Shown here: positions 3,831 to 58,495 of the stretch, one piece after another
How the letters are laid out: each line of letters opens with the position of its first letter
How positions within the stretch are numbered: the stretch's first letter is position 1
Assembly (NCBI GenBank): GCA_043798715.1
Contig: JAZDOK010000001.1
Location: 6,480-70,479, forward strand
Length of the DNA stretch: 64,000 nt
Direction of reading: 5' to 3'
From: a bacterium
Lineage (GTDB): Bacteria > Vulcanimicrobiota > JAZDOK01
Notes under the pieces: generated by a model
What the model was told of the DNA's origin: nothing
The model's database searches: none
What the model saw: the letters and a program-made list of their open reading frames with translations, nothing else
Position numbers and translations under genes: made by a program

Positions 3831-3873
3831 CAAAAGGGGAGGAGGGGGACACCCCCTCCTCCCCTTTTGTTTT
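3831..3873. terminator. bidirectional rho-independent terminator between convergent PPIase and HD-GYP genes
   Basis: Perfect 13-bp inverted repeat GGGGAGGAGGGGG-ACA-CCCCCTCCTCCCC flanked by CAAAA upstream and TTTTGTTTT downstream. Confidence 0.7.
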
Positions 3874-3911: not shown

Positions 3912-6900
3912 TCAAGAGGCGACTTGTTTCTCCACCAGCGCCAGGAATCGATCCACCAGTTCGGGATCAAATTGGCTGCCGGCGCCCTTCCTCAATTCTC
4001 TGGCGGCCATGTTAAGGGGAATCCCCTTGCGATACGACCGATCGGAAATCATAGCATCCCAGGTATCCGTAATGCTGATGATGCGGGCAGCCAGTGGAAT
4101 GTTTTCTCCGCTGAGCCCGTCCGGGTAGCCCTCTCCATCCCAGCGTTCGTGGTGACCCCGCACCGTCGGCAGGATAGGCCGAAGCGATGGGATTGGCCGG
4201 AGTATCTCTTCCCCTATAATCGGGTGCTGCTTGATAATCCCGTATTCTTCCTCGGTGAGCACGGTAGTCTTATTCAGAATTTCTTTGGGGATCTCCAACT
4301 TTCCGATATCATGAAAAGCACTGCACTGGGTCAGATCGACGTCCTCCAGGAAGAGAGCCAGCCGGTCCTGCTCCTCAGAGGAGTAGCGGGAGGGGGCTAC
4401 CTGGGTTTCACCGATATCGTGCAGTAGTGCGCCTTCCTCAATCAGGCGCAGATCCTTTTCGTCCGTGACGCCGATCTCCGCCGCCAGGGAGACCGATAGA
4501 TCGCTCACCCGGGTGGAGTGTTCAAAGGCGTCGTCATTGTTGGCCTTGAGCATGAGGGCCAACATCTTGGCTGCGGACCGCTCACCGGTCACATCGTCCT
4601 TGTAGGATTTGCGGAGTATCACTTCAATGCAGGTAGTGGCCAGACGGGAGGCCTGCTGACTGTGCTTTAATGGAGCCTGCCTGCTGAAATACTCCAACTG
4701 CGCGGCATCTTTCATGCACTTCTGGATCGTGGCTTCCTTGGCGGTTTCCAAAATATTCTGGTGTGGGCTCTCCCCCAACTGCTGCTTTTTAAGTTGATTG
4801 AGGATGTATTCCGATTGGAAAGTGTAATACCGATCGCGGCCGCTCCCCTGGCCGAAGCCGCTATGCCCGCCTTTTTCGTCAGCCGGTGTCTCCGAAGTTC
4901 TTGAAACCTCGACGATGAGGGAGCGGCTCTGAGAAAAATCGAGCGTCCTGGCATTGGACTTGGAGGTGATTTTCTCGGCTAAAGTATCCATCTCCCCCAC
5001 GGAGAAGGAGACATAACGAAAGTCCCGCGTACCGGTACGGACAGGTTCCTTCTGGCCGGCCTGAAGCACGTGAGCCCGGGCGGCCGCCTCACCGGAGCGT
5101 CCTTCCTTTTCATAGGAAGAATCGGATGAAACCATGCTCTTTTTGACGAAGGCAGTCTGAACTATTGGAGGAGGCGGGGCCTCCTGAAATGAAGAAAAAG
5201 GCGGAGTCCGAGAGCTCTCATGGGCCGCCAGGAGCACCGCTCCAATACTTCCCGCCTCGGCGACCGGCGCCTTCTGAGCCTGAAAAGAAGCCTGGGTAAG
5301 ACCTTCTATATCATGAGTTTCGACATCCGCGATGTTCAAGACGCCAAAGTTCGACTGGGCGCCCTCCGCCTCCGCGGAAGGAGCCCCATCCGATTCTTCC
5401 CCGACTGCGGCCCAATTTAACTCTGCATCCCGCTCCCTGCTTTTTTTGGCGTCCTTTGGGACGTATTCAGCGGCGAGCTGAGCCATCATCGGGAGATGAA
5501 GATCCGGCTTTGCGCGGGCCTCCTCATGATGCTGGATGACCGTTGAAACAAAAGCCTGTTCCTCGGCCTGCCGCGCATCTTCCACGACAGACGAAGAAGG
5601 CTGAGTGCTTTCCGCCTGAAAAGCCTGAACCTCGCTCCCGGCGGCGGGGGAAAGATAGCGGGAAATATCCCGGCGATTGAGGGAAGGGGAAGCCGAACCT
5701 GCCTCCTCAGCTTTGTCGGGCGCCTCCTTCTTGAGCGGCTTGTCGGTTTTTTCCTCCATGGAAGAAGAGGATATCACTCTGGCCTGCTGGTTAGCCTGGG
5801 GCTTAAGCAAAAGCTGGGCTTCCAGGGTCTCCCTGGCTGAAAGGCTCTGAGGTTCCTGCTTTGGAGGAGGTTCTGATTTCGCAGTTTCCTGGGGTTTGGG
5901 CGCCTCATCCCTGAGCGGCTTCGGCGGCTCCGGAAGAGCAGGCCGGGCCTGGATCTTAGGCGGTGATATTTCGGCATCACCTGTTTTGAGATTTTTCTCC
6001 CCGACTGCCGGCGGGGGAGCGGATGCGGCCCGGGTTACGGATCTGTTCAGCGACATTCCCCCCCCGGGCGATGCAGGAGGCGTCGGCCTTGTGCCTAAAA
6101 CATTCGCCCGCAGAGGCGACTGAACCTGATTCCTGTTAAGTGGCTGGAACAGATCCTGTCCGGATTCTCCTTTTGAGGAAGCGTTAGTATCCTTCCCGTC
6201 TCTGGTCGCAAGAGATTCCTTTTCCATATTAATTTTATTGAGGCTGGCCAGGAGAACCTGTGAAACCTCCGGCTGAAAATTCATCGGAAAGCCGGACTTG
6301 GCCGGTGACGCCTGTACCGGGGTGGACGATAGAGATGCATTCGCGACGGAACCGCCATCCGCCGCCGGTTTCCCGGGCGGGGGAGAAGACGCTGTGGTCC
6401 TGGACCCAGTCAATGGAGGAGAAGACATCTTTGGGGTTGTCGGCAAGGCGGCGCCAGAGGAAAAAGCGGAGCTTGTCATGGACAACGGTTTCTGAGGCGA
6501 AGACTCCGCCCTGGATGAAGACTCCCCGCTTAAAACAGGTGGGCTTCTTTTCGCGGGGGACGCCTCGGCCTTGTCCATCTTTATATCAGGACGGCGCGCA
6601 GGGAGTGAATCCGAGCCTGCTTTGCTTAAGACAGGGGGCTCCTTCTTAGCCGGCGAAGCGCTCTTTTCCGCCGGAGGAGCCTCGGCTTTGCTCATCTTTA
6701 TTTCAGAACGGAGGGAAGGAACTTCCTTCCCTGTCTTGACTTCCGCCTTTTTTGAAGAAGTTCCGTCTTCCCTGGCAATTTCAGCCGCGCTTTTTGCCTT
6801 CTCCGGAGAGCTCTTCGCCTCCGGAGCGGAAAAGCCGAAAGTCCTCGAAAGGGATTGGAAGCGATCAGCAATCTTCTGATTGATGGCGATGAGATAGGGA

Positions 6901-46767: not shown

Positions 46768-47001
46768 CGGAGCCACTCTCTTTCCGCAGATGGCACGGAA
46801 ATCAGCCTTGACTGACCCGCAGGATGACCTTGAAGTCATTCCCATTATATCAGAAAGGATTGTAAAAATCCAGTCCTTTGGACCCGGACCCTGTAACGCG
46901 AAGTATTTGGATTTCGCGGGCTCTTTGACGCTGCCACCATTCATAATCCGAAAAATCAACTGGAAGGGAGGAAAACACATCCTCCGGCAGAACTTAGAAA
47001 A

Positions 47002-50000
47002 ATGAGTAAAAAAAGAGGTTATTTCTACATCTACCTTTGTTTCTTTTTCTCCGGCCTGACCAGCCTCGTCTACGAGACCATCTGGACCAGAATGCTCAGC
47101 CTGATCTTTGGCCACACCGTCCTGGCCATCAGTACGGTCCTGGCAGTCTTCATGGGAGGCCTGGCCCTCGGAAGCTACCTCCTGGGCCGATGGGTGGATG
47201 ACAGCCGGCGACGCCCCATGGAAGGCCTCTGGCAGTGGCTTGGGAAGGGGAACTCCTCAGTCCCCCTCCGCCTCTACGGCATCCTGGAGGGAATCATCGG
47301 CCTCTACGTCCTCCTCACCCCCGCCCTGCTCGGGGCTATTGAAAAAACCTACGTCATGATCGCCTCCCGGGGAAGCTTTTCGTACAACGCCCTCAGCCTG
47401 GCCTGCTTCTTCATGAGCTTTCTGGCTCTCATCATACCGACCACCTGCATGGGAGCGACCCTCCCCGTCATAAGCAAGTTTCTCATCCACTCCCGCGAGG
47501 AACTCGGCGGAAAGCTGGGAGGCATCTATGCGCTCAACACGGCGGGAGCGGTCACCGGTTCCGCCCTGGCCGGATTCGTGCTCCTCCCGGTCTTCGGAGC
47601 CAGAACCTCCCTCCTGGCGGGAGCCCTCATCAATATCTGGATTTTTTTCCTTATCTTTTATGCAGCTCACGTCTTCGCCGGTGAAAAAGAAGACGACAAA
47701 GGCTCCACCTCCCCGGCGGAGGAAGAATCCCCAGCCGCCAAAAAGGCGCCAGCTCCCCTCCCCCCCTGGATCTTTCGCTGGATCATCCTCTCATTTGGAT
47801 TTGTCGGCTTTTCCTCCATGGTTTACGAGGTGGCCTGGACGCGGGCCATCTGCCTGGCTATCGGAAGTTCCATTTACGCCTTCTCCATCATTCTGACCAC
47901 GTTTCTTCTGGGCATCGCCCTCGGCAGCGCCGTCTTCTCGCTCTTTTTCGCCCGGAGGCAGAACTCCATAATTCTTCTGGCCTGGGTCGAGGCGGCCGTT
48001 GGAGCATCCAGCCTGCTTCTCACCTTTTTTTTCGGAAACCTGCCCTTCTTTTTCTATAAAATTTTTCCCGTCATTCAGGGCTCTCACTTCTCTTTAGTCC
48101 TGGGCGATTTTCTGCTCTGTTTTGCCGCCATGATCGTCCCCACCGCCCTTATGGGCTTCGCCTTTCCCCTGGTCGCGCAGATCTGCACCACCAGCCTTTC
48201 CAGCCTGGGGAAGAGCATCGGGACGGTCTATTCGGCCAACACCCTGGGTTGTATCACCGGCTCATTCCTGGCCGGATTTGTTTTCATACCTCTCCTCGGG
48301 GTCCTGAACACCATGAAAACCGGCATCCTGGCGAACCTGGTCGTGGCCCTCGCTCTTTTTCTCTGCGCCTGTTCGATCCTCTCTTGGCGGCGTATTCTCG
48401 TCCAGAGCCTGTCTTGTCTCATACTCATCGGTGCCACCGTCGCCCTTCCCGCCTGGAACACGGGGGTCATGAGCTGCGGACCGGCCATATATGCCGGGAT
48501 GTGGGAACAGATGGATCGGGTCGAATTTCTTAATAAAATCGCCCAGAAGCCCGTCTTCTACAAGGATGGGCTGAGCTGCACCGTCTCCGTCCACCAGGCG
48601 GTCTATCCTGACATTGAACCCCTGAAAGATTACGCGGTCCGGAAAAATTTCGTCGCCCTCCGGGTCAACGGGAAGGCGGACGCATCCACCATCAGCGCCA
48701 ACATGCAGACCCAGATACTACTCGGATACCTCCCGGCCCTCCTTCACCCATCCCCCAAAAAAGTGGCCGTTATCGGCCTCGGGAGCGGCATTACACTTGA
48801 TACCATACGGCAGGCCCCCGAAGTTAAAAGGGTGGACTGCGCCGAACTTGAGCCGGCAGTGGTGGAGGCCGCCGGCTATTTCTCAAAATATAACCACCGG
48901 GTCCTCACGGACAGCCGGGTGCGTCTCTTCACGACCGACGGCCGCCTCCTGCTCCTGGCCTCGCCCGAGCGCTACGACTTAATCATCTCCGAACCCTCCA
49001 ACCCCTGGATAGCCGGGATCACCAACCTTTTCAGCGTGGAATTCTACCGCATCTGCGCAGAGCGCCTGGCCCCCGGCGGGCTTGTCTGCCAGTGGTTTCA
49101 TCTAAACAATCTGGACCCCTCGGATATAAAAATGATTTTGAATTCTTTCTACTCGGTCTTCCCCTTCGGGAGCCTCTGGTCGAGTGGAGATGGGAGGGAT
49201 CTCATCCTGATCGGCCAGAAGGAAGATCGGTTGATCGACCCGGCCCGCCTGAAGCGCCTCTATGAGATACCGGTTCTGCGCCAGGCTCTTCGGAAACTGG
49301 GCTTTCTCTCCCCGGAAAGCCTCCTGGCCTCCTACCTGATGGATGCCGCAACTGCCCGGAAAATTGCCGCCCTCGCTCCACTCAACACGGATGACCTGCC
49401 GCTTCTGGAATTTTCCGCCCCCCGCTCTTTATACCAGGACACCACCCTGATAAACCTGGAGGGCCTCAGGCAATTCAAGGAAGAGCCCCGCCTTTTAAAG
49501 GACGAAGTGGCCTCCGATTCTCCCGCCTGCTCCCACTTCCATCTGGGAGTCGCCTATATGGCGGCCAGGCAGAAGGAGGATGCCCTCCGGGAATTCGAGA
49601 TGGCCCTCTCCCTCGAACCGACGCTGACGGAAGCCCGTATACAGCAGGGACGGATCCTGATGGACATGGGAAGGAATTCCGATGCCGAACGCTCACTTCT
49701 CCAGGCTTTCAGAGAAAAACAGAAGGAGGCCCGTACGGCCTACCTCCTGGGCCTGCTCAGCCAGAGGAAGAACAAGTGGAGTGAGGCTGAGTCTTTCTTT
49801 CGGAGAGCTCTTGCCGCCTGCGCCGGAGAGGAAGCGGCCTTTAAATACGTTCTCCTCCTCGAATCCGGGCGCTCCCTGGCAAAGCTGGGACGCACCAGGG
49901 AAGCTGAAAACGCCCTTCTTAAGGCATCCTCCACGCAGAAAGAGAACCTGGAAGCCCTCCGGGAGCTGGCCCTTCTTAAATACCGGAGTAACCGCCGGAA

Positions 50001-50298
50001 GGAGGCTCAACTCCTCTTCCAAAAAGTCCTGTTATCCTCTCCGGGAGACTTAGAGGCCCTGCAGGGCCTTGGGAACATCCTGCTTGCGGAGAATCGCTGC
50101 CATGAAGCCGCTATAAGATTTCGGGAGATTCTGACTGCGGCACCCAGCAATACCCACGTCCGCTTCAACTTGGCTTTCTGCCTCCTAAGAATGGGGAAGG
50201 CGGAGGAGGCCATGGAGCAATACCGGCAGATTCTCAGGGATGACCCCTACAATATGCAAGTGCTCAAGTTTATCCAGGCGCTGATGAAAAAAAATTGA
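47002..50298 (+). CDS. fused polytopic membrane domain / spermidine synthase-like domain protein with C-terminal TPR repeats
   Basis: N-terminal ~480 aa of multi-TM MFS-like segments. The spermidine synthase fold shows VAVIGLGSGITLD…DLIISEPSNPWIAGITNLFSVEFY. The C-terminal ~300 aa are TPR-like. Confidence 0.7.
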   Translation: MSKKRGYFYIYLCFFFSGLTSLVYETIWTRMLSLIFGHTVLAISTVLAVFMGGLALGSYLLGRWVDDSRRRPMEGLWQWLGKGNSSVPLRLYGILEGIIGLYVLLTPALLGAIEKTYVMIASRGSFSYNALSLACFFMSFLALIIPTTCMGATLPVISKFLIHSREELGGKLGGIYALNTAGAVTGSALAGFVLLPVFGARTSLLAGALINIWIFFLIFYAAHVFAGEKEDDKGSTSPAEEESPAAKKAPAPLPPWIFRWIILSFGFVGFSSMVYEVAWTRAICLAIGSSIYAFSIILTTFLLGIALGSAVFSLFFARRQNSIILLAWVEAAVGASSLLLTFFFGNLPFFFYKIFPVIQGSHFSLVLGDFLLCFAAMIVPTALMGFAFPLVAQICTTSLSSLGKSIGTVYSANTLGCITGSFLAGFVFIPLLGVLNTMKTGILANLVVALALFLCACSILSWRRILVQSLSCLILIGATVALPAWNTGVMSCGPAIYAGMWEQMDRVEFLNKIAQKPVFYKDGLSCTVSVHQAVYPDIEPLKDYAVRKNFVALRVNGKADASTISANMQTQILLGYLPALLHPSPKKVAVIGLGSGITLDTIRQAPEVKRVDCAELEPAVVEAAGYFSKYNHRVLTDSRVRLFTTDGRLLLLASPERYDLIISEPSNPWIAGITNLFSVEFYRICAERLAPGGLVCQWFHLNNLDPSDIKMILNSFYSVFPFGSLWSSGDGRDLILIGQKEDRLIDPARLKRLYEIPVLRQALRKLGFLSPESLLASYLMDAATARKIAALAPLNTDDLPLLEFSAPRSLYQDTTLINLEGLRQFKEEPRLLKDEVASDSPACSHFHLGVAYMAARQKEDALREFEMALSLEPTLTEARIQQGRILMDMGRNSDAERSLLQAFREKQKEARTAYLLGLLSQRKNKWSEAESFFRRALAACAGEEAAFKYVLLLESGRSLAKLGRTREAENALLKASSTQKENLEALRELALLKYRSNRRKEAQLLFQKVLLSSPGDLEALQGLGNILLAENRCHEAAIRFREILTAAPSNTHVRFNLAFCLLRMGKAEEAMEQYRQILRDDPYNMQVLKFIQALMKKN

Positions 50299-50305
50299 CA
50301 TTTCG

Positions 50306-50314
50306 TGGTATAAT
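50306..50314 (+). promoter_or_regulatory. extended -10 promoter element (TGGTATAAT) upstream of the phosphoesterase gene
   Basis: tggtataat forms a TGnTATAAT extended -10 about 84 nt upstream of the GTG at 50398. The nearby TTGACA is only 8 nt away, so it was not used as a -35. Confidence 0.4.
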
Positions 50315-50397
50315 GTATTTAAGAAGAAGTCTCGGAAGGAATGATACGAAAAGACCGGCGGCACCTCTAAACCTATTAGATAAACGGAGGGATTGTT

Positions 50398-51432
50398 GTG
50401 GATGTACCTAATGTAAATATTTCGTTCCCGGAAATTAAAAGACATCCATTGGCTGATGGTCCCAGCCGCTCCAATCATGATGATGTCGAGCCCCGCGACA
50501 CCTACGAACCGCGCAAAGCCGATTCAAAACGGAGAACGCAGAAAGCGGACAAACAAAAGCCCTCGCCTTCGGAAGGAGCCTCCTTAAACCCTGAATCGCA
50601 TCCGTCTCTCGATGGCCGGAAACTGACAAAAATAACCATCCTGCATACCAACGACATTCATGGAAACCTGAAAAACCTGCCGGCCCTCTCCGCGGCGATC
50701 GCCGCGATGATAAAAGAGAATCCCAACGCCATTCTGGTGGACTGCGGAGATCTGGCCTACAATTTTCCTTATTCCGAAACCAATCATTTCGAGCCGATGC
50801 CGGAATTCGTGAACGCGAACCTCTACAACGTCACCGCTCTTGGAAATCACGAATTCCAGTGGCCCAATACGACTCTCCAAAAGGAATTGCTAAGCCAGTT
50901 GAAACCCGACGTCCTGTGCGCCAACGTCCTTGATAAAAATACCGGCCAGCCGATACACGGCCTTAAGCCTTACGTAATAAAGGAAATAGACGGCGTCAAA
51001 GTGGCCTTTATCGGTATCGTCACTGAAGACATGGCGACCCCGGCGCATCCCGAAGTCGGCAAAGATCTGATCAAGCTGGGAGAGAATGAATCTCTGAAGA
51101 AATACGTGGCCGAGGTCAAGGAAAAGGGGGCCGACATCGTTATCGGACTCACGCACCAGGGCCTTGCAGACGACAGAAAATCCGCGGCCGCCGTCCCGGG
51201 GGTGGACCTCATCATCGGAGGCCACGACCACTTCGTAACCGAGGAACCTATCGTCGTCGGCAAATATCCCAGCCAGACCTATATCGTGGAAGCCGGTCAA
51301 TCCGCTAAATACCTGGGGGAAACGACCCTTACTTTTGATACTGAGGCCCGGGAAGTCCTTACCGCAACCATGAGGCCAATCCCTACCGGCCGATACCTGA
51401 TCAATTGCAATGGCGCTCAGAAAGCTTCCTGA
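50398..51432 (+). CDS. calcineurin-like metallophosphoesterase (5'-nucleotidase/UshA N-terminal-like)
   Basis: ILHTNDIHGNL, GDLAYN and GNHEF metal-binding motifs. GTG start with a ggaggg RBS. Confidence 0.7.
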   Translation: MDVPNVNISFPEIKRHPLADGPSRSNHDDVEPRDTYEPRKADSKRRTQKADKQKPSPSEGASLNPESHPSLDGRKLTKITILHTNDIHGNLKNLPALSAAIAAMIKENPNAILVDCGDLAYNFPYSETNHFEPMPEFVNANLYNVTALGNHEFQWPNTTLQKELLSQLKPDVLCANVLDKNTGQPIHGLKPYVIKEIDGVKVAFIGIVTEDMATPAHPEVGKDLIKLGENESLKKYVAEVKEKGADIVIGLTHQGLADDRKSAAAVPGVDLIIGGHDHFVTEEPIVVGKYPSQTYIVEAGQSAKYLGETTLTFDTEAREVLTATMRPIPTGRYLINCNGAQKAS

Positions 51433-51469
51433 CTGCTGATTTGAATCGGGACGGGAATCGTCCCGGTCG

Positions 51470-52765
51470 TCAACCGGCAGTGGTCTTGGCCTGGATATAG
51501 AGAGCGCATTCGGTGCGCTTCTGCTGGAGGCGGCAGGCGACTAAGTCCGGCTTTAGGATGTCCCCATTGACCAGGTGGGCGTTAGCGTGACAGCCCCCGC
51601 TGCAGTAATACTTGGCCCAGCATTCGGGGCATCGCTCCTTGGCGAAAAGATGGGCCGCCGCAAATTTTTCCTTAAGATCCGCCTGGACCTCACCGCTTAA
51701 AACATTTCCCATCAGGAAGCCGTCCCTTCCTATGAACTGGTGGCAGGGGAAGACCTGCCCGCCGGGGGTCACCGCCAGGTACTCCACCCCGGCTCCGCAT
51801 CCCGAGAGCCTCCTGGCCACGCAGAGCGGGGTATCAAGGGAGATCATAAAATGAAAAAAGGTGAAGGGCCGACCCTCTCTCCAGCGCTCAAGGTAAAGCC
51901 CGGTCAGTTTTTCATACTCTTCCTCAAGCACCGGCAGGTCCTCCTGGCGGATTGAAAGGGGAGACTCGGGCCTGGCGATAACCGGCTCCAAAGAGAAATT
52001 TTCTATCCCCTGATCCAGAAAATGCCGGGCCGTCTCCGAGAAGCGAAGACTCTCCCGGGTATATGTTCCCCGCACGTAATAGTTTTCACCACGGCGCGAG
52101 CGGACGGCTTTAAGGATCCCGGGAAGCACCTTCGCGTAGGAGCCATCCTGATTGGGAAAACGGCGCATCCGGTCGTTGATCTCCGGCGGCCCGTCCAGGC
52201 TGAGAATAAGGCTCAGGCCGTTCTGGTTCAGAAAATTCAGGACCTCGTCATTGAGAAGAATGGCAGTGGTAGTAAGGGTGAAAGCGATGATTTTCCCGGC
52301 CTTTTCGGCGGCTGATCGGCCATAGGCAAGCGTCTCCTTGACTACGGAGAAATTCAGCAGAGGTTCCCCCCCGAAAAAATCCACCTGCAGTTTTTTTCGA
52401 TCTCCGGAACGGCTGAGCAAAAAATCAATGGCGGCCCGGGCCACCTCAAAGGGCATATCGCCTTCTTCGGCGGCAGGAGAGGCATAAGAGGCAAAGCAAT
52501 ACCCGCAGGAGAGGTTGCACCGGTGGGAGACGTTGAGGCAGAGTGCCTTGAGCGGCCTCGAGGGCGAAGGGAGAGGGGGTGCGGTCCGGATTTCTTCCCG
52601 GCTTCGGATAAATTCGAGTTCTTTTATAACCTCGTCTTTCGCCCCGCTTAAGCCGCTCAGAGCCTGCCAGGCCTCATCATCCAAAAGGTAGAGTCCCCCG
52701 CGTTCGCCGGCCAGCAGATGCTCCGAGCCCACGCTGAAAGGATGAAAATCGGGTTCCGAAAACAA
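51470..52765 (-). CDS. radical SAM protein with C-terminal SPASM domain (anaerobic sulfatase-maturating enzyme-like)
   Basis: RCNLSCGYCF radical-SAM cluster motif near the N-terminus. Cys-rich SPASM twitch (CVARRLSGCGAGVEY…CHQF…CPECWAKYYCSGGC). Confidence 0.7.
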   Translation of the reverse strand: MFSEPDFHPFSVGSEHLLAGERGGLYLLDDEAWQALSGLSGAKDEVIKELEFIRSREEIRTAPPLPSPSRPLKALCLNVSHRCNLSCGYCFASYASPAAEEGDMPFEVARAAIDFLLSRSGDRKKLQVDFFGGEPLLNFSVVKETLAYGRSAAEKAGKIIAFTLTTTAILLNDEVLNFLNQNGLSLILSLDGPPEINDRMRRFPNQDGSYAKVLPGILKAVRSRRGENYYVRGTYTRESLRFSETARHFLDQGIENFSLEPVIARPESPLSIRQEDLPVLEEEYEKLTGLYLERWREGRPFTFFHFMISLDTPLCVARRLSGCGAGVEYLAVTPGGQVFPCHQFIGRDGFLMGNVLSGEVQADLKEKFAAAHLFAKERCPECWAKYYCSGGCHANAHLVNGDILKPDLVACRLQQKRTECALYIQAKTTAG

Positions 52766-52844
52766 ATTAAGCCTCCAGGATGAAAAAAATAAAGGGAAAT
52801 TCTCCCGCCAACGAGAATTTCACTCAATCAAAATTCGAGGGGGA

Positions 52845-53156
52845 ATGAAGATGTCCCTTTTTGACAAAGTCGGTCAGCAGGCAAAAAAAGGACTTGACAT
52901 GGCCATCCGCTCATCCGAGAAGATGATGCGGATCGAGCGTCTCAAGCTTGATGTTGCGGAATTCAAGCGGAAGAAGACCAGTTTCATGAAGGAACTGGCC
53001 AACAAGGTCTATGAAGAGTATACCAAAAACATGATTCAGGACCCCGAACTCATCCGTATATGCCAGGAAATCAAGGCCCAGCAGTGGCAGATAGACGAAC
53101 GCTGGACTGAAATCAACAACATGAAGAATGATAAGAGTCCTTCTGGCAACGGCTAA
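52845..53156 (+). CDS. hypothetical protein (103 aa)
   Basis: gaggggg RBS. It overlaps the rdgB start by 29 nt. No motifs. Confidence 0.3.
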   Translation: MKMSLFDKVGQQAKKGLDMAIRSSEKMMRIERLKLDVAEFKRKKTSFMKELANKVYEEYTKNMIQDPELIRICQEIKAQQWQIDERWTEINNMKNDKSPSGNG

Positions 53157-53766
53157 CCAGCATAAGGTCCGAGAAATCTCGGAGCTTCTTGCCGGCCTGC
53201 CCCTGGACATCCGGACCCTTTCCGATTATCCCGATCTTCCTCCTTTAAGTGAAGACGGGAACAGTTACGAGGAAAACTCCCGGAAAAAAGCGCTGTGCGT
53301 CCTGGACGCGACCTCCGTGCTCACCCTGGCGGACGATTCAGGCCTTGAGGTGGACGCCCTGGACGGAGCTCCGGGGATTTTTTCGGCCCGTTTCGGGGGA
53401 GAGAACCTCTCTTTTGCAGAGAAAAACAGGATGATTCTCTCGCTTCTTAAAGAAATCCCCGAGAATAAACGAACCGCCCGTTTCATCTGCACCGCCACCC
53501 TGGCCTTCCCCGGAGGCCGGATCGAGACCTTCAGCGGCATATGCGAAGGCGTGATTGCCCACGAACCCAGCGGCGAACACGGCTTCGGCTACGACCCCAT
53601 CTTTTTTCTTCCCGAATTCGGCAAGACCATGGCCGAGCTTTCTTCAGAGGAGAAAAACAGGATCAGCCACCGCGCCAGAGCCTTTCAGAAAGTCCGATCC
53701 TGTCTCCAAGACTGCCTGAGACGGCCTTTTGAACCGGCGACAGAGGCCCCCATACGAGATCTATAA
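53128..53766 (+). CDS. rdgB: non-canonical purine NTP pyrophosphatase (Ham1/RdgB family)
   Basis: MIRVLLATANQHKVREI…, SGLEVDAL…G, FGYDPIF motifs. Confidence 0.85.
   Translation: MIRVLLATANQHKVREISELLAGLPLDIRTLSDYPDLPPLSEDGNSYEENSRKKALCVLDATSVLTLADDSGLEVDALDGAPGIFSARFGGENLSFAEKNRMILSLLKEIPENKRTARFICTATLAFPGGRIETFSGICEGVIAHEPSGEHGFGYDPIFFLPEFGKTMAELSSEEKNRISHRARAFQKVRSCLQDCLRRPFEPATEAPIRDL
53735..53762. repeat. direct repeat DR-L flanking the brnTA insertion (overlaps rdgB 3' end)
   Basis: CGGCGACAGAGGCCCCCATACGAGATCT recurs at 54634-54673 with a 12-nt insertion. Confidence 0.6.
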
Positions 53767-53912
53767 TTGAAAGAAAGGGGAGGAGGGGGTGTTTCCCTAA
53801 GAAAGGCGTTGCGGAGGCCGAGCGGGCACGGTGTCCCGCCAAAGGCGGGACGAGCGAGGCTGAGCACCGAATCGCGATTTTCACGCTGGGAAAATCGACG
53901 GTGTACTTTCGT

Positions 53913-53935
53913 GGGGAATACCCCCGACAGCCCCG
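53913..53935. repeat. short conserved motif GGGGAATACCCCCGACAGCCCCG (copy 2 of 2)
   Basis: A near-identical 23-mer occurs at 18700-18722 (GGGGGTATCCCCCGACAGCCCCG). Both copies lie ~75-100 nt upstream of toxin-antitoxin operons. Confidence 0.55.
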
Positions 53936-54010
53936 TATTGGAGAATGCTTACGTTCATGCATGAAAGAAAATCATAAAAAAAGAATAATGCTTTTGTAAT
54001 ACATAAAAAT

Positions 54011-54020
54011 ATGATATAAT
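54011..54020 (+). promoter_or_regulatory. extended -10 promoter (TGATATAAT) for brnTA
   Basis: AT-rich stretch with TTGTAA 15 nt upstream. The TGnTATAAT ends ~19 nt before brnT. Confidence 0.45.
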
Positions 54021-54038
54021 ACAAATGAAGGCAAGACG

Positions 54039-54332
54039 ATGAAGTTAATAAAGCTCCTATGGGATGAAGAAAATCGCGCCCATATCGCCCGACATGAGGT
54101 AACTCCGGAGGAGGTCGAGGAAATATGCACCTGCGAAGACCCCAAGCCGCGGATTGAAAAGGGGAAGAAGTCAAGAAATCGGCCGGGCCTTAATTTGTAC
54201 TATGTGCTTGGCAAAACGGCGGGCGGCCGCTATATCTTTATCGTCTTCCGCCCAAAGAGGAAAGGCGAAGCGCGGGTCATCACGGCCCGGGAGATGGATT
54301 CAAAAGAGCGAAGCCGTTATGGAAGAAGGTGA
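54039..54332 (+). CDS. brnT: BrnT-family toxin (DUF497)
   Basis: The MKLIKLLWDEENRAHIARHEVTPEEVEE… pattern is typical of BrnT ribonuclease toxins. It is followed by an overlapping antitoxin gene. Confidence 0.7.
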   Translation: MKLIKLLWDEENRAHIARHEVTPEEVEEICTCEDPKPRIEKGKKSRNRPGLNLYYVLGKTAGGRYIFIVFRPKRKGEARVITAREMDSKERSRYGRR

Positions 54333-54613
54333 TTGAAATGGCAAAAATTCCGTCTTTCAAGAAGGACGAGGAGGCCGCTGCTTTCTGGGAGACTCATTCC
54401 CTGGCTGACTTTGATGAGGATCTGGAGCTTGCCTCTGAGGTTGCATTTGAATTACCCCAGAAGCAGACCTTATCGGTAAGGCTGGACGCCCGGGACGTCC
54501 AGTTGCTGAAAAAATTAGCCCGGTATAAGGGCATCGGTCATTCCACTCTGGCCCGTATTTGGGTCAAAGAAAAGCTGGATGAAGTGACCCATCGCCCAAA
54601 GCACCGCGCCTGA
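54329..54613 (+). CDS. brnA: BrnA-family antitoxin (ribbon-helix-helix)
   Basis: The C-terminal CopG/RHH-like segment is STLARIWVKEKL. It has a GTGA overlap with brnT. The alternative ATG at 54338 is in frame. Confidence 0.65.
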   Translation: MIEMAKIPSFKKDEEAAAFWETHSLADFDEDLELASEVAFELPQKQTLSVRLDARDVQLLKKLARYKGIGHSTLARIWVKEKLDEVTHRPKHRA

Positions 54614-54633
54614 GTGTCCCTGCCCATTGACCG

Positions 54634-54673
54634 CGGCGACAGAGGCCCCCTGAGTGACTTTCGTATGAGATCT
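54634..54673. repeat. direct repeat DR-R flanking the brnTA insertion
   Basis: CGGCGACAGAGGCCCCC-(12 nt)-GTATGAGATCT. See DR-L. Confidence 0.6.
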
Positions 54674-54718
54674 GATCGCTGTCAGCCGACAGCCGGCAGC
54701 TCACGGGATAAAATCGAG

Positions 54719-54747
54719 TTGTCAAGTCAAAAGCTTTGTGCTATAAT
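54719..54747 (+). promoter_or_regulatory. consensus sigma70 promoter for rpmE
   Basis: TTGTCA, then 17 nt, then TATAAT, ending ~33 nt upstream of the rpmE ATG. Confidence 0.6.
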
Positions 54748-54780
54748 GAGCCCCGTCATTATTTTGGGCGAGGTGTAACC

Positions 54781-54993
54781 ATGAAAGAGAAGATTCATCC
54801 TGCGTGGCACGAAGTGACGGTGACCTGCAGTTGCGGGTCCAGCTTCAAGAGTTTTTCCACCATTAAGGAGCTCAAGACCGAACACTGCTCCCAATGCCAT
54901 CCCTTTTATACGGGCAAGCAGAAACAATTATCGACCAAGGAGGGCCAGGTCGAAAAATTCCGTCAGCGTTACGGAATAAAGGAAGAGGCCTAG
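54781..54993 (+). CDS. rpmE: 50S ribosomal protein L31
   Basis: MKEKIHP…CSCG…CSQCHPFYTGKQ zinc-ribbon L31 signature. Confidence 0.9.
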   Translation: MKEKIHPAWHEVTVTCSCGSSFKSFSTIKELKTEHCSQCHPFYTGKQKQLSTKEGQVEKFRQRYGIKEEA

Positions 54994-55034
54994 CCATAAT
55001 TTTTTTCCGGAGGCCCCCGCGCCTCCGGGCGCCT

Positions 55035-55060
55035 AGAGAGCCGGGGCTCTCTATTTTTTT
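55035..55060 (+). terminator. rho-independent terminator after rpmE (preceded by a second GC hairpin at 55007-55028)
   Basis: AGAGAGCC-GGGG-CTCTCT followed by ATTTTTTT. Confidence 0.65.
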
Positions 55061-55072
55061 GGGGGGAAATAT

Positions 55073-55765
55073 ATGAAAGTTTCCCTGATCGGCCATACCG
55101 GAAGTCCCGAGGAGATTGTGGCTGCAGCGGCCTTTCAATGCTATGCAGCGGCGGGAGCGGAACAGCTTCTTAAGGATCTTGACAGGAAAAAAGCTTCCCG
55201 GCGCATCAGCGATTGTCTTTCCGCCGGGCACCACTCGGTCCTCGAACATGCCTCCTTTACTTTCGCCGTAGAGGGCATCTCCCGCGTCACCAGCCACCAG
55301 CTCGTCCGCCACCGCCTGGCCTCCTACTCCCAGCAGAGCCAGCGGCACGTGCGGATGGGGGCCGGAGGAGAATACGTGGTTCCACCCGGCATCGGGAAGC
55401 GGCCGGATCTTAAAGCGCGCGTCGAGAAACTCTTCCGGGATGCCTCCGATCTCTACTCCCAACTGATTGAGTCGGACGTCCCGCCCGAGGACGCCCGCTA
55501 CGTCATCCCATCCGCGGCCATGACCAAGATAGTCCTCACCATGAACGCACGGGAACTTCTGCATTTTTTTTCCCTCCGCTTATGCCGGAAGGCGCAGTGG
55601 GAAATAAGGGAACTGGCCGGACTGATGTTGAAAGAGGTGCGCCCGGCGGCGGCGGAACTCTTCAAATCGGCGGGGCCGCCGTGCCGGGAAGGTACCTGTC
55701 CCGAGGGCGACGCGGCCTGTGAAAAAAAGATGAAATCCGACAGGGTGAAAAGAGGACGGCCATGA
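55073..55765 (+). CDS. thyX: FAD-dependent thymidylate synthase
   Basis: ThyX motif [14 protein letters not shown] and a conserved HH…SVLEH region. Confidence 0.85.
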
Positions 55766-56367
55766 TGCAATTTTCAGGCGGATGGATCGAGGCCATCTGC
55801 GGCAGCATGTTCAGCGGTAAAAGCGAGGAATTAATCCGCCGGGTCCGCCGCGCGGAGATAGCCCGCCAGAAGGTGCAGGTCTTCAAGCCGACCCTGGACA
55901 CCCGCTCGGGAAATATCTGCTCGCACAGCGGCCTGGCGACCGACTGCGTTCTGGTTGATGAAAAAAATCCTTCCCTCATCCTCAAGCAAATTCGCCCGGA
56001 AACGCACGTAGTGGCCATTGACGAAATCCAGTTTTTCTCGGATGAGGTCGTCCCGGTCTGTCAGAAACTGGCCGACCGGGGCATCCGCGTGATCGTAGCC
56101 GGCCTGGATCAGGACTTCAGGGGCCGGCCATTCGGCCCGATGCCCACTCTTCTGGCCGTCGCCGAAGTTGCGGACAAGCTCCAGGCAATCTGCTCCGTCT
56201 GCGGAAGCACCGCGAGCCGCTCCCAGCGCCTCATAGACGGCGCCCCCGCCCGTTTTGACAGCCCCACCATCGCTATCGGAGCCAGTGAAAAATACGAGGC
56301 CCGATGCCGCACCTGCCACCAGGTTCCCGGTTCCGAGCCTTCCTCTTCAGATGTGGAAGTACCGTGA
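55762..56367 (+). CDS. tdk: thymidine kinase
   Basis: P-loop [11 protein letters not shown], the [10 protein letters not shown] region and C-terminal Zn-ribbon cysteines CSVCG…CRTC. Confidence 0.85.
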
Positions 56368-56909
56368 ACGCTTTGCGCCTCGCCCTGGCATTTCTTAAAA
56401 TCGGAACATTGAGCTTCGGCGGGGGCTATGCCGGGATCACCTTCATCGAGCAGGAGATCGTGAAGGTCCGCGGATGGATGCCCCAGGATGAGTTTCTTCG
56501 CGGCCTGGCCCTGGCGCAACTGGCTCCGGGCCCGGTCATGACGAACCTGGCCGCCTTCATCGGCTACCGTCTCAAGGGAGTCCCGGGAGGAGCGCTGGCA
56601 ATACTCAGCCTCCTTTTTCCATCCTTCTGCCTGGTGCTCCTGATCGCAGCTCTTTTCGGCAGATTCTCCGCTTCTTCTTCCTTCCAGGCCATTCTGAATG
56701 GAGTCACCCCGGCGATCCTGGGAATTCTGGCGGCGGTCACCGCCAGGCTCGCCATGGCCCACCTTCGAAGCGCCCTTCCCCTCCTTCTGGCCCTGGCCTC
56801 TTTCACCCTCATCTTCTTCCTGAATATTCACTCTCTCTACGTAATGCTGGGAGCCGTCCTGATTGCCGTCGTCGTCTCAGTTCTTAAAGGGAGAATAAAA
56901 ACGTGCTGA
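56364..56909 (+). CDS. chrA: chromate transporter family protein, N-terminal-type half
   Basis: CHR family signature [16 protein letters not shown]…PGP. GTG start overlapping the tdk stop. Confidence 0.7.
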
Positions 56910-57415
56910 ACCTCTTTCTGGTTTTTCTCAAGCTCGGCACCTGCGTCTTCGGGGGCGGTTATGCCGCCATTCCTCTAATGAAAAGCGAGATCGTGGACCA
57001 TCTGGGATGGCTGACCAACGATGCCTTTTTGAATGCCATCGCCGTGGGGCAGGTCACCCCGGGGCCGGTGGCGATCAGCGCGACTTTCATCGGATATCGG
57101 GTGGGAGGATTAGGAGGAGCCCTGGCCGCAACCGCGGGGATGTTTCTTCCTTCCTTCCTGATCATGCTTCTTCTCTCGGCTTTCTACTGCCGATATTGCC
57201 GGGAACAGGATCTAAAGAGTTTCTCAAGAGTTGTCCTGCCGGTTGTCATCGGCCTACTGCTGGCTGTCCTCCTGGATCTCGGAGTCCCTGCCTTCCCCTC
57301 CCTTACGGCCTGGGCCATCGGGGGAGCGGCCTTCCTCCTTACCCTGTGGGGAAAGGTGGATTACAGTCTGACCGTCATCCTTTCAGGATTTGCCGGATTT
57401 ATGATGTTGAAATAA
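56903..57415 (+). CDS. chrA: chromate transporter family protein, C-terminal-type half
   Basis: Second CHR repeat FLKLGTCVFGGGYAAIPLM…GQVTPGP. Together with the N-terminal half this forms a short-chain CHR pair. Confidence 0.7.
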   Translation: MLNLFLVFLKLGTCVFGGGYAAIPLMKSEIVDHLGWLTNDAFLNAIAVGQVTPGPVAISATFIGYRVGGLGGALAATAGMFLPSFLIMLLLSAFYCRYCREQDLKSFSRVVLPVVIGLLLAVLLDLGVPAFPSLTAWAIGGAAFLLTLWGKVDYSLTVILSGFAGFMMLK

Positions 57416-57418
57416 GAG

Positions 57419-58495
57419 GTGGTTTCCTTGATAGAAAAACTGTTGAGCTATGAAAAAAAATATGATGAACTGACGAAAAGACTCTGTGACCAGGAGTTGA
57501 TCAGCAATATTCACGAGTATCATAAAGTCGCCAAGGAGAGGGCCTCCATCGAAGAGGTGGTCCACCGTTTCAATAATTACAGGAAGCTCCTGGGGGAACT
57601 GGAAGAGGCTCAGAAAATGCTTCGGGCGGAACAGGACCCCGATTTCAGAGTCTTCCTGGAACAGGAAATCGAGAAATTTCAGAAAAGCAAAAACGAACAG
57701 GAACAATCGCTCCAGCTCCTTCTCCTGCCGAAGGATCCTTACGCCGACCGGAACATCATCATGGAAATACGCGGCGGCGCCGGCGGAGAAGAGGCGGCTC
57801 TCTTCGCCGGAGAGCTCTTCCGCATGTACACGAGGTATGCAGAGCGGCGGGGCTGGAAGTACGAGGTCATGAACTCGAACCCGACCGAACTGGGGGGGTT
57901 CAAGGAGGTCGTTTTTTCCATCGCCGGCTCCGGCGTCTGGTCCGAGATGAAATTCGAAAGCGGCGTCCACCGCGTTCAGCGCGTACCGGCCACCGAGGCC
58001 AGCGGCCGGATCCATACCTCCACGGTGACCGTGGCCGTCCTCGCGGAGGCGGAAGATGTGGACGTGCAGATAAACCCGCAGGAGCTCAGGATTGACACCT
58101 ACCGCTCATCAGGAGCCGGGGGCCAGCACGTGAACAAGACCGACTCGGCAATCCGCATCACCCACCTTCCCACCGGCATCGTAGTGGCCTGCCAGGACGA
58201 ACGCTCACAGCACCAGAACCGTGAAAAGGCCATGAGGATTTTGCGCTCCACGATCCTGGAGCGCCTCATGGCCCAGCAGGAGCAGGAAATCGCCCAGGCC
58301 CGCCGCTCGCAGGTCGGGCGGGGGGACCGGAGCGAGAAAATCCGCACCTACAATTTCCCCCAGAGCCGGGTGACCGATCACCGTATCGGCCTGACTGTGC
58401 ACAGTATCGAGAGATTCCTGGCCGGGGAACTGGATGAGATGCTCCAGGCGCTCGTCCTATCCGAACAGGAGGAACTCTTAAAAGAGCTTATTTAA
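57419..58495 (+). CDS. prfA: peptide chain release factor 1
   Basis: [11 protein letters not shown] motif. The PAT tripeptide indicates RF1, not RF2. GTG start. Confidence 0.85.

Follow-up and report, generated by a model that had tools for sequence, protein, structure and literature searches.

Genes and repeats at the rdgB–rpmE locus

The DNA analysed here, called the window below, is a 64-kb stretch (64,000 nucleotides, nt) of contig JAZDOK010000001.1 from a bacterium of the Vulcanimicrobiota, and its subject is a toxin–antitoxin (TA) pair, brnT–brnA, lying between the housekeeping genes rdgB and rpmE, all four on the forward strand. The first of them, rdgB (53128-53766), codes for an XTP/dITP diphosphatase of the Ham1 family with 212 amino acids (aa), matching Pfam Ham1p_like (2e-63) over residues 4-190. 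It is followed by brnT (54039-54332, 97 aa, PF04365), for a BrnT-family ribonuclease (RNase) toxin, by brnA (54338-54613, 91 aa, PF12441), for a CopG antitoxin of the ribbon-helix-helix (RHH) type, and by rpmE (54781-54993, Ribosomal_L31), the Pfam matches agreeing with the gene identities given in an earlier note on this DNA. That note described the pair as a recently mobile cassette, inserted at the 3' end of rdgB with duplication of its target.

The pair is bracketed by two direct repeats, both read on the forward strand, which share the exact 17-mer CGGCGACAGAGGCCCCC (53735-53751 and 54634-54650); the window holds only these two exact copies, and the next best match has three mismatches. 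A second block follows this core in each copy, ATACGAGATCT on the left (53752-53762) and GTATGAGATCT on the right (54663-54673), identical at 9 of 11 positions and not at 10, as the earlier notation suggests. The left copy (53735-53762, 28 nt) consists of core and second block, without the 12 nt TGAGTGACTTTC (54651-54662) that separate them in the right copy (54634-54673, 40 nt) and displace its second block by 12 nt relative to the left; the recurrence of the repeat 3' of brnA with a 12-nt gap was thus correctly seen. Between the copies lie 871 nt (53763-54633), close to the 870 bp estimated before, and the copies themselves are identical at 26 of 28 positions. As proposed, the 28-mer encodes the last residues of RdgB; the stop does not belong to it, since it ends inside the last sense codon and the TAA (53764-53766) falls outside.

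In a local alignment of the junction regions, the observed score was reached by none of 2000 shuffles, so that the repeat similarity stands above chance level. Taken alone, the second block is marginal when it may be placed anywhere, with 119 of 2000 shuffles as good, and significant when it is forced to begin at the end of the left-copy core (90 of 20000). Beside the left copy, TTGAAC (53729-53734, forward strand) is a possible imperfect extension of the repeat to the left. The last 20 nt of the insert, GTGTCCCTGCCCATTGACCG (54614-54633, forward strand), end in TTGACCG, which resembles the TTGAACC of the target just left of the core; this similarity between the final bases of the insert, CATTGACCG, and the bases before the core, TTTTGAACC, may represent microhomology or else an arm that has decayed. 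The sequence CACCGCGCC[A/T]GAG, found at 53668 in rdgB and again at 54602 by the brnA stop, seemed to extend the homology collinearly further upstream and was equalled in 15 of 2000 shuffles; this extension was rejected because the BrnA tail that it would replace is native, the BrnA relative P0125 having the same length and a similar HRPR tail, and the match is probably due to chance.

Empty sites in related contigs

The uninterrupted site was sought in three contigs, L082, L079 and L080, whose flanking genes are 75-98% identical to those of the window. The closest RdgB proteins in a large protein collection, P0001 (90% identical) and P0002 (73%), belong to contigs L079 and L080, and both contigs agree with the window in gene order: holB-like, PSP1, a small open reading frame (ORF), PNP_UDP, BFN, metallophosphoesterase, radical SAM, another small ORF, rdgB, rpmE, thyX, tdk, chrA and chrA. 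The gap from rdgB to rpmE measures 128 nt in L079 and 81 nt in L080, and brnTA is absent from both. The third contig, L082, was found through a 30-mer of the conserved rpmE promoter that is identical in L079, L080 and L082; it is the closest relative, with DNA identities of 91.7% in rdgB, 97.7% in rpmE and 96.5% in thyX, and it has no cassette, a differing spacer of 218 nt standing between rdgB and rpmE. Thus, the comparison that the earlier note had called for gave three related contigs in which rdgB is directly followed by the rpmE promoter, without brnTA. A scan of genome contigs gave no close relative, the best match being 56% identical, and exact-protein look-ups with the RdgB and BrnT of the window gave no matches.

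By blastn, L079 and the window form two collinear blocks, with L079 3133-6624 corresponding to 50294-53751 and L079 6610-9977 to 54636-58006. Consequently, 15 nt of L079 (6610-6624) align to both 53737-53751 and 54636-54650, from which it follows that an insertion duplicated its target, as had been claimed. The repeat sequence is single-copy in L079, where the site reads ...CCTTTGGAACCTGCCACAGGGACCTCC TGA GTGACTTTTATACGTGAGCCGATCGCTGTCAG..., and is absent altogether from L080 and L082. Since the right window copy and the sequence after it are collinear with this single copy, they represent the ancestral end of rdgB (...GAG GCC CCC TGA) and the downstream spacer: the right copy comprises the final 17 nt of the ancestral rdgB, its TGA stop and the 20 nt after it, and continues into the ancestral spacer. 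The duplication then covers a 40-nt target in the right copy, of which 28 nt are in the left copy and 17 nt are exact; judged from these alignments, the duplicated target measures about 40 nt, or 47 counting the imperfect left extension. This is larger than the 28 nt first assumed, the right copy being intact and the left one carrying a 12-nt deletion.

Over the same 40 nt, L079 differs from the window at 11 positions (29/40 identical), and the core states specific to the window are common to both of its copies; at the two mismatches of the second block, it is the left copy that has the L079 state (A and C). The likeness of the two copies, the 11 differences to L079 and the shared core states together place the duplication much later than the L079 split. 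On these sequence comparisons, the insertion took place after the lineage had parted from relatives with 92-97% identity in the flanking genes, and in this relative sense the cassette was rightly called recently mobile; in another sense the description went too far, as the nearest other cassette is 87% identical, with a synonymous divergence (dS) of about 0.7, and neither a mobility gene nor a near-identical copy of the cassette was found in the searches made.

The insertion also changed the end of the host gene. In the left copy, which lacks TGAGTGACTTTC, the frame continues as ATA CGA GAT CTA before reaching TAA (53764-53766) at the insert junction; those 12 nt hold the ancestral TGA, and RdgB therefore has 212 aa compared to an inferred 208. 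Its end is now ...EAPIRDL instead of ...EAP, the last four codons (IRDL) and the TAA having been created by the insertion event. The orthologues have 208 (L079), 197 (L080) and 200 aa (L082) with varying tails, and the insertion lies beyond the Ham1 domain, within a tail that is different in each of the relatives. The rdgB–rpmE spacer is in this way a variable spot of the lineage, where the insertion altered the C-terminus of RdgB and left the domain untouched.

In L082, the rdgB tail and the spacer are replaced by an unrelated AT-rich stretch of 149 nt (2225-2373), in which a strong terminator hairpin, TAGGGACAGCGCC...GGCGCTGTCCCTATTTTTG, accompanies a promoter-like TTGACG...TACTAA; the stretch may code for a small RNA or a small peptide, or it may have been left behind by another insertion at this place. 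The left breakpoint of this rearrangement lies within about 8 nt of the repeat, which makes the end of rdgB a recurrent breakpoint, probably because this is where a conserved gene gives way to dispensable sequence.

The brnTA module and its leader

The insert codes for brnT and brnA only, as seen by ORF and Pfam scans of its 871 nt. BrnT scores 40.9 bits against BrnT_toxin (PF04365, cut-off 34.5), with residues 8-90 covering profile positions 1-77 of 77, and BrnA scores 48.8 bits against CopG_antitoxin (PF12441, cut-off 28). Two database proteins located on a 75-kb bacterial MAG contig, MAG standing for metagenome-assembled genome, are 100% identical to them: P0121, named BrnT family toxin by NCBI, and P0124, a CopG family antitoxin whose 91 residues place the start codon of brnA, an ATG, at 54338, separated from the brnT stop by 5 nt. 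A profile built from 44 BrnT relatives matches PDB entry 3U97, the ribonuclease toxin BrnT of Brucella (E = 0.0022), and also 7VD7. In an exhaustive HMMER search, BrnT had relatives in 833 representative clusters (E <= 0.001), of which the best reach 53-58% identity; the plasmid-borne relatives, annotated as BrnT, are about 45% identical, and a word-indexed search of 5.8 billion proteins gave only two close relatives. From family membership, BrnT is predicted to be an RNase toxin that is neutralised by BrnA, the two working like other BrnTA pairs.

The toxin-first arrangement with an adjacent antitoxin is also present in L081, L084 and L087. A single close relative of the cassette came to light, on the 897-nt contig L081, with a BrnT that is 86% identical; DNA homology covers window positions 53978-54593, up to the end of L081, at 86.9% identity. 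The ratios of nonsynonymous to synonymous divergence (dN/dS) relative to L081 are 0.095 for brnT and 0.063 for brnA, at a dS of about 0.7, and the cassette is under purifying selection (dN/dS about 0.06-0.10). The more distant cassette relatives stand in unrelated contexts, none of L081 and L083-L087 has similar flanks, and the flanks of L083, L084 and L085 showed no above-chance similarity to those of the window; a match to AGATCTCGTAT at the brnA end in L083 was judged to be chance. At the DNA level, the insert had no matches among plasmids and phages, nor did the BrnA profile and the leader hairpin described below among viral contigs. The object itself is a BrnTA module of the ordinary kind, and such modules are expected to be mobile.

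The cassette carries its own promoter region (53978-54038, forward strand), identical to L081 at 59 of 61 nt. Its extended -10, TGATATAAT (54012-54020), lies within a stretch of 33-37% GC, in agreement with the AT-rich promoter noted before, and is overlapped by inverted repeat arms (53993-54004 and 54014-54025) containing TGTAATACA and TAATACA, after which a ribosome-binding site follows. The motif TGTAWTACA overlapping the -10 occurs twice in the window (53993-54025), also in L084 (700-720) and twice in L087 (1-50); this inverted repeat is a candidate operator for the RHH domain of BrnA that appears to be conserved in the BrnTA subfamily. A 31-mer of the promoter gave no matches in JGI metagenomes.

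Upstream of the promoter, about a quarter of the insert is a GC-rich non-coding leader of 215 nt (53763-53977, forward strand, about 61% GC), whose predicted RNA fold has an energy of -87.1 kcal/mol (z = -4.46). It has long-range complementary arms (53785-53797 and 53913-53925) and two hairpins, 53833-53851 (GTCCCGCC-AAA-GGCGGGAC) and 53875-53897. No Rfam match at E <= 1, no tRNA or tmRNA and no Pfam match for the leader ORFs was obtained, by which a known RNA or a gene remnant was ruled out. The leader is absent from L079, L080 and L082, and it is not homologous to the L081 flank except for one hairpin: the pattern GTCCCGCC-N3-GGCGGGA occurs in the window (53833-53851) and in L081 (49-67), within surrounding DNA that cannot be aligned, and in its strict form these are the only two sites in 695 kb of sequence searched. 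In both of these closest cassettes it stands 200-290 nt upstream of brnT and is flanked by short direct repeats, GGCCGAGC and GGCTGAGC in the window and GCCGAAGGCG twice in L081. In addition, the 19-mer AAAGGGGAGGAGGGGGTGT at the start of the insert (53774-53792) equals one arm and the loop of a perfect bidirectional terminator at 3833-3867, whose hairpin sits between convergent genes, and L080 has a similar purine run (1591-1624) in a spacer between convergent genes. A decayed terminator from the donor locus may be part of the leader.

Search for mobility machinery

No transposase or integrase ORF was found in the insert, and no transposase or integrase gene among its neighbours, which are conserved housekeeping genes also present in L079 and L080. 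The ends of the insert, compared as terminal inverted repeats, are identical at 13 of 40 positions, which is chance level. Neither the R'' (RYYYAAC) nor the R' (GTTRRRY) box of attC was present on either strand between 53601 and 54800, no site within nine mismatches of Escherichia coli dif or of the Acinetobacter pdif sequence used as consensus was detected, and the 64-kb window has no tRNA gene. The features of insertion sequences (IS) and transposons are likewise missing, as there are no inverted ends and no transposase, and the duplication has 17-40 nt compared to the short 2-14 bp of such elements. A model with hairpin ends of the IS200/IS605 type was rejected, the right end having no hairpin and that family not being known to make a target duplication. 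With neither a recombinase gene nor terminal inverted repeats, attC or dif, the event is therefore classed as an insertion with long target duplication.

Origin of the insertion

As the best explanation overall, foreign brnTA DNA was very probably inserted in the rdgB tail with a long target duplication. An 871-nt foreign piece, made up of the leader and the self-promoted brnT–brnA operon, would have entered the dispensable 3' tail of rdgB after the lineage had split from its closest sampled relatives. About 40 nt of target, namely the last 17 nt of rdgB, the TGA and 20 nt downstream, would have been duplicated in the process, with the right copy remaining intact and the left copy subsequently losing, or arising without, the 12 nt that include the old stop. 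The route is put forward more tentatively: in the likeliest one, given a little short of an even chance, repair or replication functions of the host would have made two illegitimate joints about 40 nt apart. These could have arisen on the sister duplexes of a fork, or at a staggered break whose ends were afterwards filled in, and the microhomology TTGA(A)CCG would have aided the right one. In its new place, the RHH domain of BrnA would repress the operon at the inverted repeats overlapping the -10, as in the BrnTA family, and the resulting cassette would be an addictive one that is not easily lost.

Compared with L079 and L080, the window contains another lineage-specific insertion (46930-50293, 3.36 kb), between the BFN-domain and metallophosphoesterase genes. 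It is bracketed only by TTGAC, present at both junctions and serving as the -35 of the downstream promoter, a pattern which suggests that the lineage gained this DNA, too, via short-homology joints and which, like the microhomology at the right joint of the cassette, supports the host-mediated route. The insertion contains an ORF of 1098 aa (47002-50298) with a spermine/spermidine-synthase-like domain and C-terminal TPR repeats.

Several points weigh against the explanation favoured here. The mechanism is reconstructed from its end-products, and a perfect 17-nt core with differences confined to the arms has the look of the attL and attR sites left by a recombinase; under simple decay, all four point differences would miss the core with an estimated chance of about 0.07. 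Moreover, the 12-nt gap of the left copy requires an extra event, the view is limited to 64 kb of one MAG contig, so that a trans-acting recombinase may be encoded elsewhere, the source is a metagenome assembly, and the TA activity is a prediction.

The look of attachment sites is taken up by an alternative in which a circle of about 888 bp carrying one repeat (attP) integrated in the Campbell manner into the rdgB tail (attB), through recombination in the 17-nt core by a tyrosine or serine recombinase acting in trans, as in cis-mobilisable elements, or by RecA, the repeats then being attL and attR with no duplication arising de novo. The perfect core speaks for it, together with arms that are imperfect on both sides (TTGAAC compared to TTGACCG on the left, a 12-nt indel and two mismatches on the right), and so do the position at a housekeeping 3' end where codons of the element keep the frame open, as is typical of integrative elements, and the GC-rich hairpin kept upstream of the two closest cassettes, which could be a protein-binding site. 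However, a recombinase gene is absent from the insert and from its neighbours, the same housekeeping genes as in L079 and L080, and the circle would have to match a fast-evolving, lineage-specific 17-mer that is five positions off L079. The circle would then come from the corresponding locus of a very close relative, an assumption that only moves the question of the first insertion one step back, and the cassette relatives L081 and L083-L087 are without similar flanks. For these reasons integration of a circle is regarded as less likely than the favoured route, although it is the main rival and deserves more weight than the two readings considered next.

If the cassette were ancestral, and recombination between its flanking repeats had removed it from L082, L079 and L080 in separate events, each deletion would leave one copy of the repeat, as is seen in L079. 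L080 and L082, however, are without the repeat sequence altogether, the window copies resemble each other (26/28) more than L079 (29/40), which dates the duplication after the split, and three losses of an addictive module are set against a single gain, making an ancestral cassette highly improbable. An assembly artefact, with a chimeric MAG join, or a chance repeat beside a vertically inherited pair, is hardly credible: the metagenome-assembled source, the 75-kb contig of P0121 and P0124 being labelled 'MAG: bacterium', leaves room for such a join, but a 17-nt repeat is below the usual assembly k-mer size and both junctions run collinearly into the sequence of relatives, while the shuffles that failed to reach the repeat score and the precise mapping of the repeat to a single ancestral copy speak against both the artefact and the coincidence.

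Relation to known systems

The module resembles BrnTA of Brucella abortus (PF04365 and PF12441) in its toxin-first bicistron, in passing the Pfam gathering scores and in its match to 3U97, as well as in the C-terminal RHH-type antitoxin domain and the promoter inverted repeats suited to autoregulation; it differs in sequence, as the BrnT of the window is about 45-58% identical to the nearest representative and plasmid-borne BrnT proteins.

Insertion with long target duplication was reportedly described for restriction–modification (RM) gene complexes by Nobusato and colleagues in 2000. The criteria used for such events ask for an empty site in a relative, a duplication of more than 30 bp, an insert of less than 20 kb, the absence of further mobile-element genes and a repeat that is unique in the genome (Furuta et al. 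2010). At the rdgB end, L079 is an uninterrupted relative in which both repeats fall on a single copy (6610-6624), the insert is below 20 kb and carries no mobile genes, and the repeat is unique within the 64-kb window. In Haemophilus influenzae, two RM cases have 46-bp repeats overlapping the 3' end of a gene, without mobility genes (PMC2853133). The likeness includes the small insert with no mobility gene, the empty site, the unique repeat and the addiction-module cargo, and also the size and place of the repeat, about 40-47 nt compared to 46 bp at the 3' end of a gene in Haemophilus influenzae. Meanwhile, the cargo in the window is a TA pair with an RNase toxin whereas RM cargo cleaves DNA, and the repeat is imperfect, with a 12-nt gap, two mismatches and 17 exact nt.

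Reviews give long target duplication for RM systems and describe lone chromosomal TA pairs as 'genomic islets' (PMC3874152, PMC2654758). Among the publications found for long target duplication combined with toxin–antitoxin, the reviews use the phrase for RM systems or within their references, and the remainder, judged by titles, deal with RM systems and methylomes. An example of a TA islet is ccdO157 of E. coli, which has folA and apaH as its neighbours on the two sides (reviewed in PMC2654758). Islets of this type are likewise lone TA operons between housekeeping genes, present or absent among close relatives, but the locus in the window keeps a clear duplicated target at both junctions, which informs on the mode of entry.

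Integrative elements that target the 3' ends of protein-coding genes, and their recombinase-less derivatives, the cis-mobilisable elements (CIMEs), share with the insert the direct repeats at a housekeeping 3' end, the identical core with imperfect arms and the intact gene; in contrast, the element in the window has only 0.9 kb, with an integrase gene neither inside nor near. The brnTA pdif modules of Acinetobacter plasmids and the TA cassettes of chromosomal integrons are similar as small discrete modules with their own promoter, but the window has neither XerC/D (dif-like) sites nor attC R''/R' boxes, and those modules do not duplicate their target.

The movement of lone chromosomal TA pairs without a visible mobility gene is poorly documented, as most islets have lost their junction scars. 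This locus retains both junctions, has three empty-site comparators and an unusually long duplication (about 40 nt), and it ties TA mobility to the long target duplication of RM type. For RM systems, DNA breakage by the cargo itself has been proposed as the cause, and the same scar around an RNase-toxin cargo would favour host repair. As a speculation to which we give little credence, TA operons might, like RM complexes, invade chromosomes alone by long target duplication with no need for cleavage by the cargo, and GTCCCGCC-N3-GGCGGGA might serve in cis as the site of such movement or of a recombinase supplied in trans.

Neighbouring genes

The promoter of rpmE (TTGTCA, 17 nt, TATAAT with an upstream TG; 54719-54747, forward strand) was left undisturbed by the insertion. 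Nothing resembling a terminator was detected in the interval from brnA to rpmE, so that transcription may read through into rpmE. The promoter and 5' leader of this gene (54710-54780; TCGAGTTGTCAAGTC...GCTTTGTGCTATAATGAGCCCCGTCATTATT...GGCGAGGTG) are almost invariant among relatives whose genes are 75-87% identical; their conservation exceeds that of the coding sequence and suggests that L31 has a regulatory leader. Downstream of rpmE stands the ThyX gene (55073-55765), identified by Pfam. On the other side of the insert, a conserved ORF of 103 aa without a Pfam match (52845-53156) overlaps the start of rdgB by 29 nt, and at the same place an ORF of 101 aa is called in L079 and L080.

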